Of a DNA stretch of 64,000 nt, positions 15,405 to 22,569 are shown one piece after another; position 1 is the first letter of the stretch, and each line of letters opens with the position of its first letter. Under the pieces are notes generated by a model. That model was not told where the DNA came from and made no database searches. It was given only the letters and a program-made list of their open reading frames with translations. Made by a program: the position numbers and the translations under genes. The stretch lies in the IMG/VR virus record IMGVR_UViG_2778261540_000003; one strand, 5' to 3'. The DNA comes from a virus. Taxonomy: Duplodnaviria; Heunggongvirae; Uroviricota; Caudoviricetes.

Positions 15405-15476
15405 CAGTTACAGTGTCACTTTTAATGCTGGTGGAGTGCGCCCACCAGCATTTTTTTCGTCCAATGAGGAGGGCAT

Positions 15477-15983
15477 TTGAGTATTTTCAATAAACACGCA
15501 CACCAGGAACGTCCGTATATCGTCATAGTTGATATTGATGGAACAATATCAGAGGCAACTGAAGACAGACTGCATTTGCTTCCGCCACCAGGTAAAGGTG
15601 CATTAACAAAGGACTGGAACGAGTTTAATCTCGCCTGTGACACCGATACTCCCATCACTCCAGTTATTGATATGGTGCGCCAGTTATTTAACGTTTACAC
15701 GGTCTGGTTTGTAACCGGGCGCTGTGAGATCGCAAGGGATAAAACACTAGCCTGGCTGCGGAAGTACGTAACAAACGGGGCTGAGCCTTTGCTATCTATG
15801 CGTCCTGCCACCGATGACAGAAATGACGGCCCAGCAAAGATTGATCTCCTTAAGAAAATTGGTCTAAGTAAAATCGCGTTCGCGCTGGAAGATAAGATTG
15901 AAGTGGCGCGTGTTTTCAGGAGGCACGGCGTGCTTACGTTAATGGTCAGGGAGTATGAAAACGCGCTTCTCCATCAACAATGA
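15477..15983 (+). CDS. HAD-superfamily phosphatase-like protein
   Basis: 168 aa; DxDGT-type motif VDIDGTI near N-terminus. Confidence 0.55.
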   Translation: MSIFNKHAHQERPYIVIVDIDGTISEATEDRLHLLPPPGKGALTKDWNEFNLACDTDTPITPVIDMVRQLFNVYTVWFVTGRCEIARDKTLAWLRKYVTNGAEPLLSMRPATDDRNDGPAKIDLLKKIGLSKIAFALEDKIEVARVFRRHGVLTLMVREYENALLHQQ

Positions 15984-15999
15984 TTGCTCTAATAAATAT
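15983..15999 (+). promoter_or_regulatory. C1 repressor operator
   Basis: ATTGCTCTAATAAATAT overlapping the stop codon of the preceding gene. Confidence 0.6.
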
Positions 16000-16177
16000 T
16001 GATTTTTAAAACAGAGAAAGTGAAAATAAAAACATGCCGCAAGGCGCGGCATGTATCCAATCAATCACAGGAGCTGAAAATATGAACACGGCATTCAAAA
16101 TCATTATGGCCGCGATCTATTTCTGGCTGTTCTCTATCACTTTTGGCGGCATCGTCGCACATGGGTAAGGGGGATGC

Positions 16178-16759
16178 ATGAAAGGCGAAGTGAAAGAGCG
16201 CGGCATGATTTTTAACGATGAGATGGTCCGGGCAATTCTTGGCGGGAATAAAACACAGACTCGCAGGATTGTTGAAGAAAAATTCTATGGACGGGCAGTG
16301 GCCGCAGAGTTGCTTGCCAAGCATTGTCCATATGGTCAACCGGGCGATCGTATTTGGGTTCGCGAAACCTACCGGGTACATGGCAAAGCGACGGACGTCG
16401 CAACGCTGGTTTATCGCGCAAGCGTGCGTAACTCCTGGACAGAACAAACGCACCGGGTTCCGGTCGAGGTTTGTAATAAACCAGTATCAGAAAAGTGGAC
16501 GCCATCAATTCACATGCCGCGCTGGGCATCGCGCATTCTTCTGGAAATTACCAACGTGCGCGTTGAGCGGTTGAACGATATCAGCGAATGCGATGCAAGG
16601 GCTGAGGGCGCACCAACAGAATCGACCCTCATTGGCGATAAGCATTACCCAGGTTTCCGTAGCCTATGGAAATCAATTTATGGCGAAGATAGTTGGAACG
16701 CTAATCCTTGGGTGTGGGTAATAGAGTTTGAGCGTATTCAGGGGGCAACCAGTGAGTGA
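16178..16759 (+). CDS. ASCH/PUA-like domain protein (tentative)
   Basis: 193 aa; N-terminal FNDEMVRAILGGNKTQTRR pattern. Confidence 0.5.
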   Translation: MKGEVKERGMIFNDEMVRAILGGNKTQTRRIVEEKFYGRAVAAELLAKHCPYGQPGDRIWVRETYRVHGKATDVATLVYRASVRNSWTEQTHRVPVEVCNKPVSEKWTPSIHMPRWASRILLEITNVRVERLNDISECDARAEGAPTESTLIGDKHYPGFRSLWKSIYGEDSWNANPWVWVIEFERIQGATSE

Positions 16760-17012
16760 GTCAAAATGCCAAATTAATGGCAACAAGATAGAACCGTGCG
16801 CGGCGTTGGCACAATCCCTGGAGCATGACGCTGAATACACGACGCGAAAAGGTCTGCTGAAATACAAAATCTATAACCATGAATTAATTCATTCACAAGA
16901 CCTGATCATGCTGCGGTCTGGTGAATTTTCTAAATCGCCTATTCGAGTTTCATTTTGCCCGTTCTGTGGTGAAAGTCTGAAAACGTGGGAAGCGGAGGCA
17001 ACCAGTGAATAA
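16728..17012 (+). CDS. Small Cys-containing protein (possible zinc ribbon)
   Basis: C-x10-C and CPFC motifs; probable start at in-frame GTG near 16752. Confidence 0.35.
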   Translation: MSVFRGQPVSESKCQINGNKIEPCAALAQSLEHDAEYTTRKGLLKYKIYNHELIHSQDLIMLRSGEFSKSPIRVSFCPFCGESLKTWEAEATSE

Positions 17013-17649
17013 CCGCTTTTACATGATGTGCTTGCGTGAAACTGTGGGTAATAACGCCTCATTCCATTGCCATAACGGCAATGGTTACAGTTCTGATATC
17101 GATCGCGCTCATGTTTACACGCTGGAAGAAGCCCAAAAAGCCTGGAATTGTGGACGAGATATCGATCAGCCTGTTTGCGCTGATAGCGTGGATGCAATGG
17201 CTGTGTGGCACGTTGATTGCCAGTACATCCCCACAGAAAGCCTGATTGAGTCAGATTGCACTGCGTATGTGGCCTACAAAAAAGGTAGCTGGAACGGCAA
17301 CGATGTTTACTGGCTTCAACACGGTGGATTGCCAACAGATGACTTCAGTAAAGCGACCATCTTTAGCGTCGCCAACAAAAACGAACCAGGAATAGTTTGG
17401 TTGCCATTTTCCATTGCTGATGCAGCAAAGCGTCGGACGTTCAATATCAATAACTTTAACCGCAGAACAATGGTTCAGGGCGCAGGTTTGGTCATGCCTG
17501 ACTGGTTGAAAGAGCAGAACAGAAGAAAGAAGTCGCGAAGCGGGAAGGTGCGTTGGAATTGTCCGCATTGCGGAAAAATAACCTGGCAGTACAGCCCATA
17601 TGATTTTGAAGGCTGTAGTGATTACAACTGTGAAGGATGGCGAGAATGA
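17005..17649 (+). CDS. Hypothetical protein with C-terminal CPHCG..C..C cluster
   Basis: 214-aa ORF. Confidence 0.55.
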   Translation: MNNRFYMMCLRETVGNNASFHCHNGNGYSSDIDRAHVYTLEEAQKAWNCGRDIDQPVCADSVDAMAVWHVDCQYIPTESLIESDCTAYVAYKKGSWNGNDVYWLQHGGLPTDDFSKATIFSVANKNEPGIVWLPFSIADAAKRRTFNINNFNRRTMVQGAGLVMPDWLKEQNRRKKSRSGKVRWNCPHCGKITWQYSPYDFEGCSDYNCEGWRE

Positions 17650-18395
17650 CAATTGACTATCAGGCACTGCGTGAGGCGGCAGAGCGTGCAATTCCGGCAA
17701 TGGAACACCTGTTAATGTTGCCAGTTGATGATGATTTGTTAACTGAACAGGAACTTAAGGATTACGGTGTGGATATTGATGCGCTCAACGCCTTCAAATT
17801 TCTGACCGGACCAGAAACCGTGCTGGCACTACTGGATGAACGGGAAAGAAACCAGCAATACATAAAATGCCGCGACCAGGAGAACGAGGATATTGCGCTA
17901 ACGGTAGGGAAGCTGAGAGTTGAGCTTGAGGAAGTAAAACAACACGCTGAAGAATTATCCGAAACCAAGGCTGTTCGTAACCAATGGCGGCCAGATATTT
18001 GCCCAATAACCGGACGTGCATTTTTCATGTGGATTGAGCATCCAACATTGGGAAATGTGCCGACATATGGTGGCCCATTAGATAGTTACACCATTCCAAC
18101 AAAGGACGGTGACGGTGAGTTTTCATGTGAGCGTTACGATCATGATTTTGGCGGTTGGGTAGAAAGCGAATGTCTTGGGTTATATCTGATTGATGATAGA
18201 GAACAATGCAGGGTCTACGAACTGGAGGAACGCGTTAAGGAACTGGATGCTCGGGAAATATCGCTCCCGGAACGTAGCAGCATGCTTCATCGAACAGATT
18301 TTCACGATGATTACCAAACGGTAATGGCATACAAAGTTTCTGAAGTCATCGATGCAATCCGCGCCGCAGGCATTCGCATCAAAGGAGGTGAGTAA
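17637..18395 (+). CDS. Hypothetical protein
   Basis: 252-aa ORF, start overlaps previous stop. Confidence 0.6.
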   Translation: MARMTIDYQALREAAERAIPAMEHLLMLPVDDDLLTEQELKDYGVDIDALNAFKFLTGPETVLALLDERERNQQYIKCRDQENEDIALTVGKLRVELEEVKQHAEELSETKAVRNQWRPDICPITGRAFFMWIEHPTLGNVPTYGGPLDSYTIPTKDGDGEFSCERYDHDFGGWVESECLGLYLIDDREQCRVYELEERVKELDAREISLPERSSMLHRTDFHDDYQTVMAYKVSEVIDAIRAAGIRIKGGE

Positions 18396-18571
18396 TGCGT
18401 GTGGCATGTATCGGCTTGTTACCGTACCCGACTCGTTTTTGGGCTTCTGCGCTAATTGCAAAGCCGTATGTCCTGATGGCTGACAACATCATCCCGGCAC
18501 CAAAGCGCCGCCATACCGGTATTGCAGCGGCACGACGAGCAGCAAAGAGACGCAGGAGAGCAAAGCGATGA
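18395..18571 (+). CDS. Small basic protein (58 aa), first of three tandem small basic ORFs
   Basis: hand translation MRVACIGLL..RRAAKRRRRAKR; start overlaps previous stop (TAATG); below ORF-track size cutoff. Confidence 0.3.
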   Translation: MRVACIGLLPYPTRFWASALIAKPYVLMADNIIPAPKRRHTGIAAARRAAKRRRRAKR

Positions 18572-18744
18572 AAAACCGTAAGGCAAAACGACTTTTTTTA
18601 CAGCGACCTGTGCGTGTGGTGGAGCTGGTTATTAGCAACCATAAGATAGCGGTACTCCATCCATTTGGTCAGGTGGCTTTTGCCGCAAAGCGTAAGCCTA
18701 CTGCGTCACAGAACAGGCGGAAGAAAGGGTACGCTGTAAGATGA
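18568..18744 (+). CDS. Small basic protein (58 aa), paralog of the next ORF
   Basis: begins MKNRKAK like 18741 ORF; stop overlaps next start (ATGA). Confidence 0.35.
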   Translation: MKNRKAKRLFLQRPVRVVELVISNHKIAVLHPFGQVAFAAKRKPTASQNRRKKGYAVR

Positions 18745-18929
18745 AAAACCGTAAAGCAAAGATTCTGTTAGTTCGTAGAAACGCTCCTGGCGTCTGGCAG
18801 TGGGTGAGACTCAGCAACCGACGGATGGGGTTGATGAAATATTACGGGATGATGGATTGTGGTTTTTGCAAAAAGCCCAGCGCGGCGCAAAACCGCTGGA
18901 AAAACCACTTGCGCACTAAAGGAGAGTGA
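18741..18929 (+). CDS. Small basic protein (62 aa)
   Basis: begins MKNRKAKILLVRR; CGFC motif. Confidence 0.4.
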   Translation: MKNRKAKILLVRRNAPGVWQWVRLSNRRMGLMKYYGMMDCGFCKKPSAAQNRWKNHLRTKGE

Positions 18930-18930
18930 T

Positions 18931-19140
18931 ATGGCTATCGCTGCAAGTTACACCATGCATCTCTATTGTGATTGCCTCCAGTGTACAGATGGCAAATATA
19001 AGTCGCCAGACTTCGGTGAGTATATAGGTACGTCATGGGCTGGCTGTGCAAAAGAGGCGCGCAAGGATGGCTGGCGAATAAGCAAAGACAAAACGCGTGC
19101 TTTTGCGCCCGGGCATAAAGTTTTGAGGATTAACAAATGA
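18931..19140 (+). CDS. Small Cys-rich protein
   Basis: ATG preceded by aaaggagag RBS; CDCLQC..C motif; ORF track gives longer 18859 start. Confidence 0.4.
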   Translation: MAIAASYTMHLYCDCLQCTDGKYKSPDFGEYIGTSWAGCAKEARKDGWRISKDKTRAFAPGHKVLRINK

Positions 19141-20333
19141 CCACTATAACCAAAGAGCGACTGCTGACAATCAAGCAGTGGCGCGAAACATACGGACCGG
19201 GTAGCAACGTTGTACTGCCAGCAGAAGAAGCGGAAGAACTGGCACGGATTGCTCTGGCATCGCTGGAAGCAAAACCAATAGGTGCATTCCACATTGCAGA
19301 ACAGCAAGTTGACGGCACAAGTGACTACCTCAAGGATGGAGAATGGCCTATTGATAATGGAATTATTGAGGTCTACGCCGCTCCCCCCGTTCCAGTAGTA
19401 CCGGAAGAAAAACCAATGCCTAATCCTCTTAGCATGTACGCGGTTGATGCTGTTGCCGCTATTGCAGAGGTGAGAGGCTGGAACGCCTGCCGCGCCGCCA
19501 TGCTTCAGTCCGGAAACTTTCGGGAAAATAAGAATTCGTCAACCAATAATTTTCGGGAAATCGCGGAAACGTCAACCAACTATCCGGTAATTCCTAGTGA
19601 AGTGTTGTCCGCAATCCTGAAGGTTGCCAAGATTCGTGCCGATTTCGATGATTTTGACGGTGACAGGCGAGGTATCGGTGATTGTCTGGATGAGGCTGAG
19701 CAAGAGCTTATCGTTACCATTAACAAATATGCCAGTCAGTTGGCAGCAGAACCGATAGCGACTAATGACGTTCGAGAGCAAACAGCCGTTCCGCCAGTTC
19801 CTGTAATACAGGCTGATGTCGCGCAGGCAATTGAAAAACTCAAACGGAAATTAGTGGAATGCAATCGCTATAACTACTGCGCAGATGCAGTTAAGGGCGT
19901 TGAGTATGCCTGCCACGCTGCCATGCTTCAGGGTAGCCAACCTGTAAGCCAAACTTACAAGTTTCCAGTTAATACACCTTGCCAGGATGCGCCAGCCCAT
20001 ATCTGGCTGCAAACAGCTGGAGTATGGCCAGAAGATGGCGAGTTAAGCGAATTAACGTGGTGCAGCCACAATCAGCACCATGATGACACGCTATATGTTC
20101 GAGCTGACTTGGTAAATGGCAATTCTCAGGTAACTCCGGATGGTTGGATAAGCTGTAGTGAGCGAATGCCCGCTCAAGATGATTGGATTTTAATTTATTC
20201 AAAGCACGGTGAGTATATGGCAGGACAGGTGCAAGGGGAATACGTGGAGTTGAGCGACGGCACTTTATCCTGGTTAGGGAACGCCTTGTTCTGGATGCTG
20301 CTACCAGAACCTCCCCAGGAGGCAGGTCAATGA
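19137..20333 (+). CDS. Hypothetical protein with internal tandem repeat (NFRE..STN x2)
   Basis: 398-aa ORF; DNA-level direct repeat near 19500-19575. Confidence 0.6.
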   Translation: MTTITKERLLTIKQWRETYGPGSNVVLPAEEAEELARIALASLEAKPIGAFHIAEQQVDGTSDYLKDGEWPIDNGIIEVYAAPPVPVVPEEKPMPNPLSMYAVDAVAAIAEVRGWNACRAAMLQSGNFRENKNSSTNNFREIAETSTNYPVIPSEVLSAILKVAKIRADFDDFDGDRRGIGDCLDEAEQELIVTINKYASQLAAEPIATNDVREQTAVPPVPVIQADVAQAIEKLKRKLVECNRYNYCADAVKGVEYACHAAMLQGSQPVSQTYKFPVNTPCQDAPAHIWLQTAGVWPEDGELSELTWCSHNQHHDDTLYVRADLVNGNSQVTPDGWISCSERMPAQDDWILIYSKHGEYMAGQVQGEYVELSDGTLSWLGNALFWMLLPEPPQEAGQ

Positions 20334-20397
20334 GCTGGCCTGAAGCATTCGCAACGGTAGGAATTGTGATGGCGGCAGCACTGGGTTTGTATTCAAT

Positions 20398-20649
20398 TTG
20401 TCGCTGGTGGTAACGATGGGGAAATTAACTTTTGTAGTCGAATTTGAGGATGGTAAAGAGCCACCTGTTAGCGCCAATCTTGATGTTGCTGGTGGAAGGA
20501 TTGTTTCGGTTCTATTTGGTGACTACCGAGATGACTTCTTCCAACCAGAAGAAGTTGATGTGGTGCGAGAGGCATTAAACGAGTTAAGTGTTGACAACGA
20601 TGATGCTCATGCGGAAATCATCCAAAAAATGGAACTGCTAACTCACTAA
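20398..20649 (+). CDS. Hypothetical small acidic protein
   Basis: 83-aa ORF. Confidence 0.45.
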   Translation: MSLVVTMGKLTFVVEFEDGKEPPVSANLDVAGGRIVSVLFGDYRDDFFQPEEVDVVREALNELSVDNDDAHAEIIQKMELLTH

Positions 20650-20731
20650 ATTATCAATTATGGTGCTATAACCTACGACACCGAGAGAAAATTTATAATG
20701 TCAAAAGTAAATGTTTTGATTTTTTCAGCAA

Positions 20732-21121
20732 TTGTTGGCTTTGGTTTTACTGCCGGAGTGCAGATTTATATTACGTGGGAAAAAATCATCAACTACGCAT
20801 GGAGTTGTTTTATTAAGTGAGGTAAGTATGTGGAGAGGTAATAATCATGGCAAAAGCCAGATGATACTTACCGAATATAAGCTAGACCACAAAACCAATA
20901 AATCACGCTCAGTATATTTGCTCCGGCACAATAGTCGCGTAAGAAATACCGTGCTGGAACAAAATCTGACAGTTGAAATGGATAATTACGGGGGATTCAA
21001 GCCAACAATTTCACTTGATGATTTTCCTCGTGGTTTAAGCGAAAGAGAAGCAATGCTGAAATTAGCAGAATGGCTACAAAGATTAAGCATTGCTATTGAA
21101 GATAACTGGTCTGAACCTTAA
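20732..21121 (+). CDS. Hypothetical protein in AT-rich islet (likely true start near 20827, MWRGNNHG)
   Basis: ORF in markedly AT-rich DNA; preceded by a 40-codon hydrophobic micro-ORF near 20699..20821. Confidence 0.4.
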   Translation: MLALVLLPECRFILRGKKSSTTHGVVLLSEVSMWRGNNHGKSQMILTEYKLDHKTNKSRSVYLLRHNSRVRNTVLEQNLTVEMDNYGGFKPTISLDDFPRGLSEREAMLKLAEWLQRLSIAIEDNWSEP

Positions 21122-21127
21122 ATTTAT

Positions 21128-21502
21128 ATGATGACACTAAAACATTTTCTTGACCGCCCATTATGGGCGGCAGCCGCAGGCTATGACTTTAATTATATGG
21201 ATTGCATGTCTTATACTGCCAATGCATACGACCATTCGTTCAGCCTGCTGTTTAATTCTTTAAGAATATTGCCGGAAACAGAAGTTGGAGAGCTTCATTT
21301 ATGGCTATTGGGCTTTATCGCGGCTGTCGTTGGTATTGCTGTATGGCCTTTTATTTTCTGGCTGGTGGCTGTTGTAGTGTGGTTTAAGTGCAAGGCATAC
21401 CGGAAAAAGTATTTCTTAGGTGATGGAATGACTGATATTGCCAAAATGAACATTGAAAAATGGACTAAGGAATGTGAAAAGAAATGGCGCAAAAAGAAAT
21501 GA
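21128..21502 (+). CDS. Membrane protein
   Basis: 124 aa with hydrophobic segment LWLLGFIAAVVGIAVWPFIFWLVAVVVWF. Confidence 0.5.
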   Translation: MMTLKHFLDRPLWAAAAGYDFNYMDCMSYTANAYDHSFSLLFNSLRILPETEVGELHLWLLGFIAAVVGIAVWPFIFWLVAVVVWFKCKAYRKKYFLGDGMTDIAKMNIEKWTKECEKKWRKKK

Positions 21503-22257
21503 CAAGAATCACTAAAGAACGCATATCAGAGATTATCGCCCGTATCGAAATGTATGGTCACGGTGCTGGATATACGGCAGATGAAGTATTGGCACTTGCC
21601 CAAATGGCTTTGGCGGCTTGCAAAGATGATAAAAAAATGAAGCTTATCGACTTGTTAGTGAAGGAGCTGCCCAAGTGCGGCGGGTGGCCTGATGGTATGA
21701 TCGATTGTCGCCTGCTCAGTGCCAATTTAATGGCGCCATGCGCGACTTTTGCTTTTGGCTCGGACCACAAAAAAGACACTTTCTTTGGGCGCAATTTTTG
21801 TTGTGAGATTGAGCTTCCAATCGGTGACCTTGATAGCGATGAATACCAGTCAGTTGTCACTCGCGAACAATACGAAGCTGCTCTCATAGCGTCGCAGAAA
21901 GTCGAGTTCAATGGTGATGAACCTGAAAGTAAGGCTTACAAGTTAGATTTTGAGCAATGGCTGGAACAGCAACGCGGGAAAATCGATGTGGACTGCGGTT
22001 GTGTGTCTGCGGAAACATTCATGCACTGGTTGCGGGTAGCTTATGTGGCTGGCAACCATCCGGATTTTCCGGATAGTTCCCAACAATCGCCCAAGAAAAG
22101 CGTAAAAACCACTCTGGAAAGAGGCTATCTTGAGGCCGCATTAAAGATTAAGCCGGGCCATACGCTAGGCGTCATTGATGCCATGTTGGTTCATGAAATG
22201 GCGAAGGCTTTATTGCCGCTGGTGGCTGATAAAATTCCGAATAAGGCCGATATCTGA
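21484..22257 (+). CDS. Hypothetical protein
   Basis: 257-aa ORF. Confidence 0.6.
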   Translation: MAQKEMTRITKERISEIIARIEMYGHGAGYTADEVLALAQMALAACKDDKKMKLIDLLVKELPKCGGWPDGMIDCRLLSANLMAPCATFAFGSDHKKDTFFGRNFCCEIELPIGDLDSDEYQSVVTREQYEAALIASQKVEFNGDEPESKAYKLDFEQWLEQQRGKIDVDCGCVSAETFMHWLRVAYVAGNHPDFPDSSQQSPKKSVKTTLERGYLEAALKIKPGHTLGVIDAMLVHEMAKALLPLVADKIPNKADI

Positions 22258-22296
22258 TCACCATGCTAAAATCCCCTCAATTCACAGAGGGGATTT

Positions 22297-22569
22297 TTGT
22301 ATATGTTGCATAGAGTTTTATGGAAAAGCGTTATTGTCGGCGCGATACTGGCTATATCTGGGTGTGCAATGGTGCAATACAACGACGGTGAAAAGGTAAG
22401 CATACAGTCAGATGGTTGGTATGGCCTGGATAGCCTGCAAAAAACCGCAGATAAAGCCTGTCAGCAATATGGGAAGTCTAAAGCAGTATATCAGCATAGC
22501 GCGAACGCTAACCCTAATCTTGCGCCCGGTTCGGGTGTTCAGAATACCATCTGGAAATGTGAGCCTTAA
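22297..22569 (+). CDS. Small lipoprotein
   Basis: signal peptide with lipobox ISGC. Confidence 0.5.

Follow-up and report, generated by a model that had tools for sequence, protein, structure and literature searches.

Three very short, overlapping and strongly basic open reading frames (ORFs), located at positions 18395-18929 of a 64,000-nucleotide (nt) stretch of Caudoviricetes DNA (IMG/VR record IMGVR_UViG_2778261540_000003, hereafter the window), raise the question of whether they are genuine genes and, if so, what kind of protein they encode. The reading favoured here, an evenly balanced call when taken as a whole, is that they are genuine, translationally coupled early genes forming a modular cassette, and that their tiny polybasic products may act by binding nucleic acid. 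All three lie on the + strand: ORF1 (18395..18571, 58 aa), ORF2 (18568..18744, 58 aa) and ORF3 (18741..18929, 62 aa). A preliminary description had reported them as tandem frames of 58, 58 and 62 codons overlapping at TAATG or ATGA junctions, and both the coordinates and the junctions are confirmed, with TAATG linking the upstream Ea22-like gene to ORF1 and ATGA overlaps at 18568 and 18741. Each ORF is in the -1 frame relative to the preceding gene. The Shine-Dalgarno (SD) sequence of ORF1 is strong (AAGGAGG, 18382-18388), that of ORF2 is AGGAG (18554-18558), and that of ORF3 is weak (AAAGGG, 18724-18729), so initiation of ORF3 probably depends on ATGA coupling. The richness in arginine and lysine pointed out in the same description is equally clear: each product contains 15-16 such residues in 58-62, with net charges of +14, +15 and +14 and isoelectric points of 12.0, 12.0 and 11.3 for ORF1, ORF2 and ORF3, respectively. 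This places the three in the top ~2% for basicity among the window's 347 ORFs of at least 50 aa, while among the 50 window ORFs of 150 aa or more the net charge per residue has a median of about 0 and peaks at 0.12. Two of the three, at 58 aa, do fall below the 60-aa default of the ORF track, as had been noted.

ORF2 and ORF3 are members of a single family, PHROG 1380, referred to here as the MKNRKAK family. The two proteins are homologous over their full length (37% identity, E 5e-10, BLASTP), and the phrog_1380 hidden Markov model (HMM) matches residues 1-62 of 62 in ORF3 (E 1e-40) and residues 1-58 of ORF2 to profile positions 1-60 of 62 (E 6.5e-23). Both contain the motifs MKNRKAK-x-L, SN[RH][RK] and [ST]A[AS]QNR, which correspond to invariant or nearly invariant alignment columns. 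In a sample of ~235 IMG/VR loci, among which 105 DNA versions and 80 proteins are distinct, the near-invariant termini and the central SN[RH][RK] motif enclose a core that varies and falls into at least eight types; ORF2 has body type B and an 'internal-copy' tail (...QNRRKKGYAVR), and ORF3 (WP_000797279.1 in the Prokaryotic Genome Annotation Pipeline, PGAP) has body type A and a 'terminal-copy' tail (...QNRWKNHLRTKGE).

Codon analysis of 99 distinct sequences, with substitutions counted along a minimum spanning tree, gave a ratio of nonsynonymous to synonymous change (omega) of 0.36 in the family frame, falling to 0.044 in codons 1-9 and 0.19 in the C-terminal motif, as against 0.97-1.5 in four alternative frames. 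The antisense mirror frame has an omega of 0.48, as expected from shared third positions, and is open in 10 of the 99 sequences. Substitutions at codon positions 1, 2 and 3 number 85, 52 and 141. In addition, residues that are invariant in the protein are written with alternating synonymous codons, including K5 (AAA/AAG, 75/24), K7 (AAG/AAA, 62/37), S26 (AGC/AGT/TCA), N27 (AAC/AAT, 56/43) and R59 (CGC/AGG/AGA, 73/17/9), which indicates that the constraint acts on the protein and not on a DNA or RNA motif. Given the frame-specific omega, the synonymous variation and the third-position-heavy substitutions, ORF2 and ORF3 are evidently real protein-coding genes under protein-level purifying selection. 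Within body types, omega is 0.027 at the N-terminus, 0.36 in the core and 0.20 in the C-terminal motif, and the core value gives no sign of diversifying or positive selection on the variable core. The comparison of related phages proposed in the preliminary description thus shows frames conserved in hundreds of phages, with substitutions of the coding type. In two rare ORF3 homologues, the central part of the protein is read in frame +1 relative to ORF3 (GETQQPTDGV...LWF), and the frame is regained before KKPSAAQNRW; this double frameshift keeps both termini, occurs on one assembly contig in each case, and may be a sequencing artefact.

ORF1 (WP_001261538.1 in PGAP) belongs to a separate family, PHROG 13831, whose HMM it matches over residues 1-58 of 58 (E 1.1e-41). 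The possibility that it is a distant paralogue of the MKNRKAK family was rejected by profile alignment (hhalign probability 0.1%). Its product combines a hydrophobic N-terminal half with a polybasic C-terminal half (...TGIAAARRAAKRRRRAKR). The sense frame is favoured by its orientation on the same strand as the whole operon, its strong SD, the ATG or GTG starts and the ATGA junction downstream. Translation of a homologue has been reported: 'X015', one of 72 novel translated genes of enterohaemorrhagic Escherichia coli EDL933, has strand-specific ribosome footprints (35 reads per kilobase per million, 84% coverage, ribosome coverage value 0.32), and mass spectrometry gave no peptides for it (Neuhaus et al. 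2016; PMC4765031, Additional file 8). The 51-aa X015 sequence is the 933W-type homologue of ORF1.

The genomic context points to early expression. The cassette lies within a chain of adjacent or overlapping + strand ORFs running from 16178 to 22257, which is bounded by strong terminator-like hairpins at 15424 and 22268; the latter (22268..22297, +) follows the last chained ORF and is the probable end of the operon. At the operon head is a P1-type C1 repressor operator (15983..15999, +), the equivalent of P7 Op(hea): the sequence ATTGCTCTAATAAATAT is identical to this P7 protein_bind feature, which is annotated as 'predicted to regulate expression of hea operon'. C1-operator-like 17-mers (ATTGCTCTAATAAATTT, with at most three mismatches) occur 13 times in the window versus 0.3 expected, for example at 15983, 31002, 52039, 10218 and 31085, which identifies the window as a genome of P1 type and points to further operons under repressor control. 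Across 17600-19200, identity is 100% both to plasmid pLH85-a-A and to other plasmids of ~90-100 kb, and the window is a P1-like plasmid prophage of E. coli.

In lambdoid phages the same genes occupy a different, equally early setting. The gene order in 933W, with the cassette on the strand of the early-left genes, is exo ... ea22-like L0069, the ORF1 and ORF3 homologues, L0068 ... xis, int, and in other Shiga-toxin (Stx) phages the cassette likewise lies downstream of ea22, between exo and xis. Exo-xis region genes are transcribed early from pL, and a downstream group of genes that varies follows ea22 (PMC8614690). By position, the 933W homologues therefore belong among the lambdoid exo-xis accessory genes; in the window the cassette sits instead in a P1-type, C1-controlled operon, with Ea22 and DUF551 genes as neighbours rather than the structural module that would be expected around virion proteins. 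Family members in unrelated phages also have non-structural surroundings: in Salmonella phage Sasha the gene follows one that is ParB-like, in the lytic phage Av-05 it stands among hypothetical genes, and in the P1-like D6 it comes after Ea22.

For the function of the products, the available evidence consists of composition, conserved motifs and predicted structure. AlphaFold2 models of ORF2 and ORF3 (mean predicted local distance difference test, pLDDT, 68 and 61) both show a helix-beta3-helix arrangement. The charge, the three conserved Asn-Arg motifs and this predicted mini-domain make nucleic-acid binding a plausible best guess, and the charge and predicted fold make a regulatory role, which the preliminary description had mentioned, plausible as well. 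Under this reading, the genes would be expressed upon derepression or infection, and ribosomes would pass from gene to gene by termination-reinitiation. Each MKNRKAK member may fold as a helix, a three-stranded beta-meander and a C-terminal basic helix, according to the low-confidence models, and the proteins, carrying a net charge of +14 or +15 in ~60 residues, would bind DNA or RNA. The constant basic termini could provide general affinity and the variable core specificity or partner choice, and the outcome would be that gene expression or replication, of host or phage, is modulated early in development, as with other small exo-xis proteins.

Library searches yielded no assignment to a characterised family. 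Pfam and NCBIfam scans of the three proteins, together with Pfam scans of each member of both families (E up to 10), found no recurrent or significant family; the PADLOC models of anti-phage defence matched none of the three at E up to 1; and a sequence-profile search of the PDB returned one chance match (E 0.87) and no relative. No significant structural or profile similarity was detected to the DNA-binding mini-domains that combine a three-stranded beta-sheet with a helix, namely AP2/ERF and integrase arm-binding domains. The zinc-finger double-stranded-RNA-binding family zf-C2H2_jaz scored 13.3 bits versus the Pfam cutoff of 22.6, and both ORF3 cysteines are absent from most body types, so this candidate was set aside. 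Two resemblances, a CsrA-like N-terminal strand (ILLVRR vs LILTRR) and a lambda-N-like ...QxxWK... pattern, were dropped as unconserved across body types and without a profile match. The idea that the conserved termini represent a DNA or RNA element was also rejected: synonymous sites vary, Rfam has no match within 18395-18929, and folding of the cassette RNA shows no excess structure over shuffled sequences (z +0.84). A 12-nt inverted repeat inside ORF3 (18859-18870 / 18897-18908) cannot be a family feature, because it pairs a conserved segment with a type-specific one.

Several observations weigh against the favoured reading. For ORF1, omega is 0.40 and four further frames are at ~1, but the mirror antisense frame reaches 0.43 and stays open in 44 of the 48 sequences, and the substitutions by codon position (30/35/78) are about equal at positions 1 and 2; since neither omega nor the codon-position pattern can tell the sense from the mirror antisense frame, the sequence evidence for ORF1 is weaker. 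Frameshifted ORF1 variants without the basic tail are also present in databases. Three such homologues are frameshifted past ...IIPAPK and acquire an acidic tail (...QRHDEQQRDAGEQSDEKP) that runs into the start of the next gene, and one of these clusters is found on 95 contigs, which indicates that ORF1 is not always intact. A few members of the MKNRKAK family are truncated. Nucleic-acid binding is proposed from charge together with a fold of low confidence, the ORF2 and ORF3 models are not independent, as their alignments are mostly shared, and the library and structure searches gave no significant match to any DNA- or RNA-binding family or structure.

The arrangement of the cassette across genomes reveals regular rules. 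Among 119 distinct contexts, the MKNRKAK gene is present in one copy in 63, two copies in 55 and three copies in 1, and ATGA overlaps join the tandem copies. An ORF1-type gene stands directly upstream of the array in 84 of these contexts (71%); where it is missing, the array directly follows an Ea22-type or other gene, and even there the last ~25 nt of 'ORF1', bearing the AGGAG of the next gene, are retained. The C-terminal tail is set by what follows, either another copy or a cargo gene whose SD lies inside the tail codons: all 42 MKNRKAK copies preceding another copy end in ...NRRKKGYAVR, and 88 of the 89 terminal copies end in ...NRWKNH(LRTKGE), regardless of core. Hybrid copies are seen, for instance one that joins a core of ORF3 type to a tail of ORF2 type, and 15 different core-type arrays were observed.

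Breakpoints of blastn similarity between the window and other loci cluster at 18360, 18580, 18740 and 18930, which are gene ends, with the ends of high-scoring segment pairs (HSPs) concentrated at 18580-18590 (91 HSPs) and their starts at 18740 (114 HSPs). Breakpoints thus cluster at a conserved 21-nt start segment present as a direct repeat (copy 1, 18567..18587, +, GATGAAAAACCGTAAGGCAAA; copy 2, 18740..18760, +), the two copies being 95% identical. The preliminary description had taken the shared N-terminus and nearby DNA of two of the ORFs as a sign of local duplication. The shared N-terminus and DNA are indeed there, and ORF2 and ORF3 are paralogues, but the DNA they share is confined to this start segment, so that the duplication is ancient and not a recent local event. 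In addition, each of the two bodies, ORF2-type and ORF3-type, is found at 98-100% identity in phages where the other is missing or where its partner is of another type. As judged from these comparisons, modules of ~180 nt have been reassorted at conserved junctions to give the present arrangement, a small-scale form of the mosaicism usual in these phages. The conserved tail is evidently recombinable onto other genes as well, since an unrelated 59-aa protein (MTPQQENALRSIARQ...) has an identical ...AAQNRWKNYLRTKGE end. On some viral contigs (L013, 1396-2689; L181, 1500-2495), a second MKNRKAK gene or array lies 600-750 nt downstream of the first with another gene between, indicating that the family can be dispersed as well as tandem within one operon.

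The main rival to nucleic-acid binding is that the products are early host-takeover or counter-defence factors, each attaching to one particular host protein (for example of a defence system, RNA polymerase or the replisome), with the variable cores directed at different targets. This explanation, clearly less probable than the favoured one although a serious contender, draws on the position in the accessory early region beside other small modulators, on the diversity of cores and arrays with one to three copies, and on the narrow range within enterobacterial phages. The lack of positive selection within core types is weak for an arms-race interface, a positive charge this extreme would more usually be found in proteins that bind nucleic acid, and no defence model was matched, although the library covers defence and not anti-defence proteins. 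A combinatorial version joins the two ideas: the invariant termini would dock on a common nucleic-acid or ribonucleoprotein platform and also serve the homologous recombination that shuffles cores between phages, and each of the swappable cores would neutralise or reprogram its own host target, for example a defence system. We regard this version as rather unlikely; if true, it would make the array a swappable specificity cassette of Stx phages and P1-like phage-plasmids. For ORF1 taken separately, a membrane-active or toxic small peptide functionally distinct from ORF2 and ORF3 is improbable. Its hydrophobic N-terminal half (MRVACIGLLPYPTRFWASALIA) followed by a polybasic half, its separability from the array and its lack of homology with the array genes would suit such a peptide, but the overall grand average of hydropathy is -0.22, the hydrophobic stretch contains prolines and one arginine and so offers no clean transmembrane helix, and no similarity to known toxin families was found.

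Other explanations assign little or no role to the proteins themselves, or place them in the particle. That the ORFs mainly act as translational relays feeding a variable downstream cargo, with dispensable peptides, would account for several features: every junction is ATGA or +1 nt, the SD of ORF3 is weak, the tail tracks the downstream junction and holds the SD of the next gene, and the end of 'ORF1' persists where ORF1 is absent. A relay, however, needs neither conserved residues nor several paralogous copies, and a pure relay is disfavoured by amino-acid constraint that reaches far from the junctions, to SNR[RK] in mid-protein, to the core and, with abundant synonymous change, to the N-terminus (omega 0.03); it has little chance of being the whole account. 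Still less probable is the view that these are no functional genes at all and that the ORFs are chance frames or linker DNA kept as recombination junctions. The coincidence of breakpoints with conserved termini, the inconsistent annotation and the occasional truncated or frameshifted copies would agree with it, yet for ORF2 and ORF3 it is largely refuted by the frame-specific purifying selection, synonymous variation at conserved residues and dominance of third-position substitutions, and the ribosome footprints on the ORF1 homologue oppose it as well. Virion internal or DNA-condensing proteins are a similarly faint prospect. Internal proteins had been suggested in the preliminary description, and the very high positive charge is compatible with them, as are the weak matches that 3 of 22 ORF1 homologues show to adenovirus core protein V (E 0.024), but these matches are below the Pfam threshold and compositional. 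A virion role is unlikely because the genes lie in a C1-operator operon here and at the exo-xis position in lambdoids, away from structural genes and never in the structural module.

Compared with known systems, the ORFs are outright members of PHROG 1380 and PHROG 13831, both listed as 'unknown function'. With the exo-xis proteins Orf60a, Orf61, Orf63, Orf73, Ea8.5 and Orf55 (PMC8614690) they share the niche between exo and xis after ea22 and a size of 50-75 aa. No sequence or detectable fold relation links these proteins to ORF1-ORF3, which differ from them in being much more basic and in forming tandem paralogue arrays with constant termini. Arginine-rich-motif (ARM) RNA-binding peptides, such as the N-terminal ARM of lambda N, an early lambdoid product, are short polybasic helical segments. 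The C-terminal ...AAQNRWK... and the ...AAARRAAKRRRR of ORF1 are similar to an ARM in composition, but homology was not detected in Pfam or NCBIfam, and the ORF motif is C-terminal on a predicted folded mini-domain and not a free N-terminal arm. No boxB-like target of the kind used by lambda N was identified, a genome-wide boxB search not having been made, and the local RNA is not unusually structured. ORF1-ORF3 are thus uncharacterised proteins of a kind already known, the small early accessory phage proteins.

The genes are abundant within a narrow group of phages. Phage records with a homologue number 146 for ORF3, 16 for ORF2 and 67 for ORF1, and 310 plasmids carry the genes. The exact ORF1, ORF2 and ORF3 sequences are each present on at least 1000 contigs, and every database name is either 'hypothetical' or 'prophage protein'. 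When 1.84 billion representative proteins were searched by profile, only 50 clusters came back, all of the same small family; two long repeat proteins from this search were judged spurious, and a scan of genome contigs gave no confirmed relative. On these searches the family is narrow, restricted to enterobacterial phages including Stx phages, and the cassette is common to lambdoid phages and P1-like phage-plasmids. Annotation is inconsistent: PGAP annotates ORF1 and ORF3 and omits ORF2 in pLH85-a-A, ORF2 alone is annotated in RCS47, ORF3 is merged into a 155-aa 'orf8' in VT2-Sakai, and the ORF1 and ORF3 homologues are both unannotated in the original 933W record. Literature searches with peptide strings, accessions and PHROG identifiers found no mention apart from X015; none of the sequences is present in the Sakai RIBO-seq supplements, and the Phi24B exo-xis paper does not mention the ORFs under the names searched. 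In VT2-Sakai (L236, 326-544), the small gene VT2-Sap06, two places downstream, has the RefSeq name 'released from the phage upon host infection', which is unexpected as a product name in the early-left region.

The genes flanking the cassette and the head of its operon offer further features. Upstream lies the ead/Ea22-like gene (17637..18395, +; Pfam PF13935, E 4e-27; annotated by PGAP). Downstream, the variable 'cargo' position is held by a 69-aa gene of PHROG 926 (18931..19140, +; phrog_926, E 1.5e-36), which starts 1 nt past the ORF3 stop and whose SD (AAGGAG, 18919-18924) sits within the ORF3 tail codons; in other loci this position is taken by DUF4014, an HNH endonuclease, DUF551 proteins or an unknown 171-aa protein. 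Next, an intact ORF of 398 aa spans 19137-20333 (+) and has a DUF551 domain at its C-terminus (E 5e-9). In pLH85-a-A, which has 33 mismatches in 9.6 kb, PGAP splits this stretch into two pseudogene fragments; the ORF looks like a mosaic of pieces that are separate in other loci, and it may mislead homology-based annotation. A 28-codon ORF (16082-16168, +; MNTAFKIIMAAIYFWLFSITFGGIVAHG), located after the C1 operator and ahead of the operon's first annotated gene, encodes a single hydrophobic helix and has a good SD, AGGAG, 8 nt upstream; it is identical in P7 (L002, 1464-1550) and unannotated both there and in the PGAP record. Just past the operator, 16032-16054 forms a perfect GC-rich hairpin (ACATGCCGCGCCTTGCGGCATGT), which on the minus strand is followed by a T-run as in a terminator and on the plus strand lies in the operon leader. 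A GcvB match over this hairpin was sub-threshold (E 0.31) and probably due to chance.

Collectively, the analysis provides a clean gene model, coding evidence, the modular rules of the array and a link to published ribosome-profiling data for the ORF1 homologue. The cassette is carried by a large share of the Stx phages and P1-like phage-plasmids of E. coli and Salmonella, and small proteins of the exo-xis or early accessory region in which it sits are known to affect the choice between lysis and lysogeny and, through it, the release of toxin. Should the products of ORF1-ORF3 turn out to be regulators that bind nucleic acid, or factors that counter defence, early phage biology would gain a new family of small proteins.

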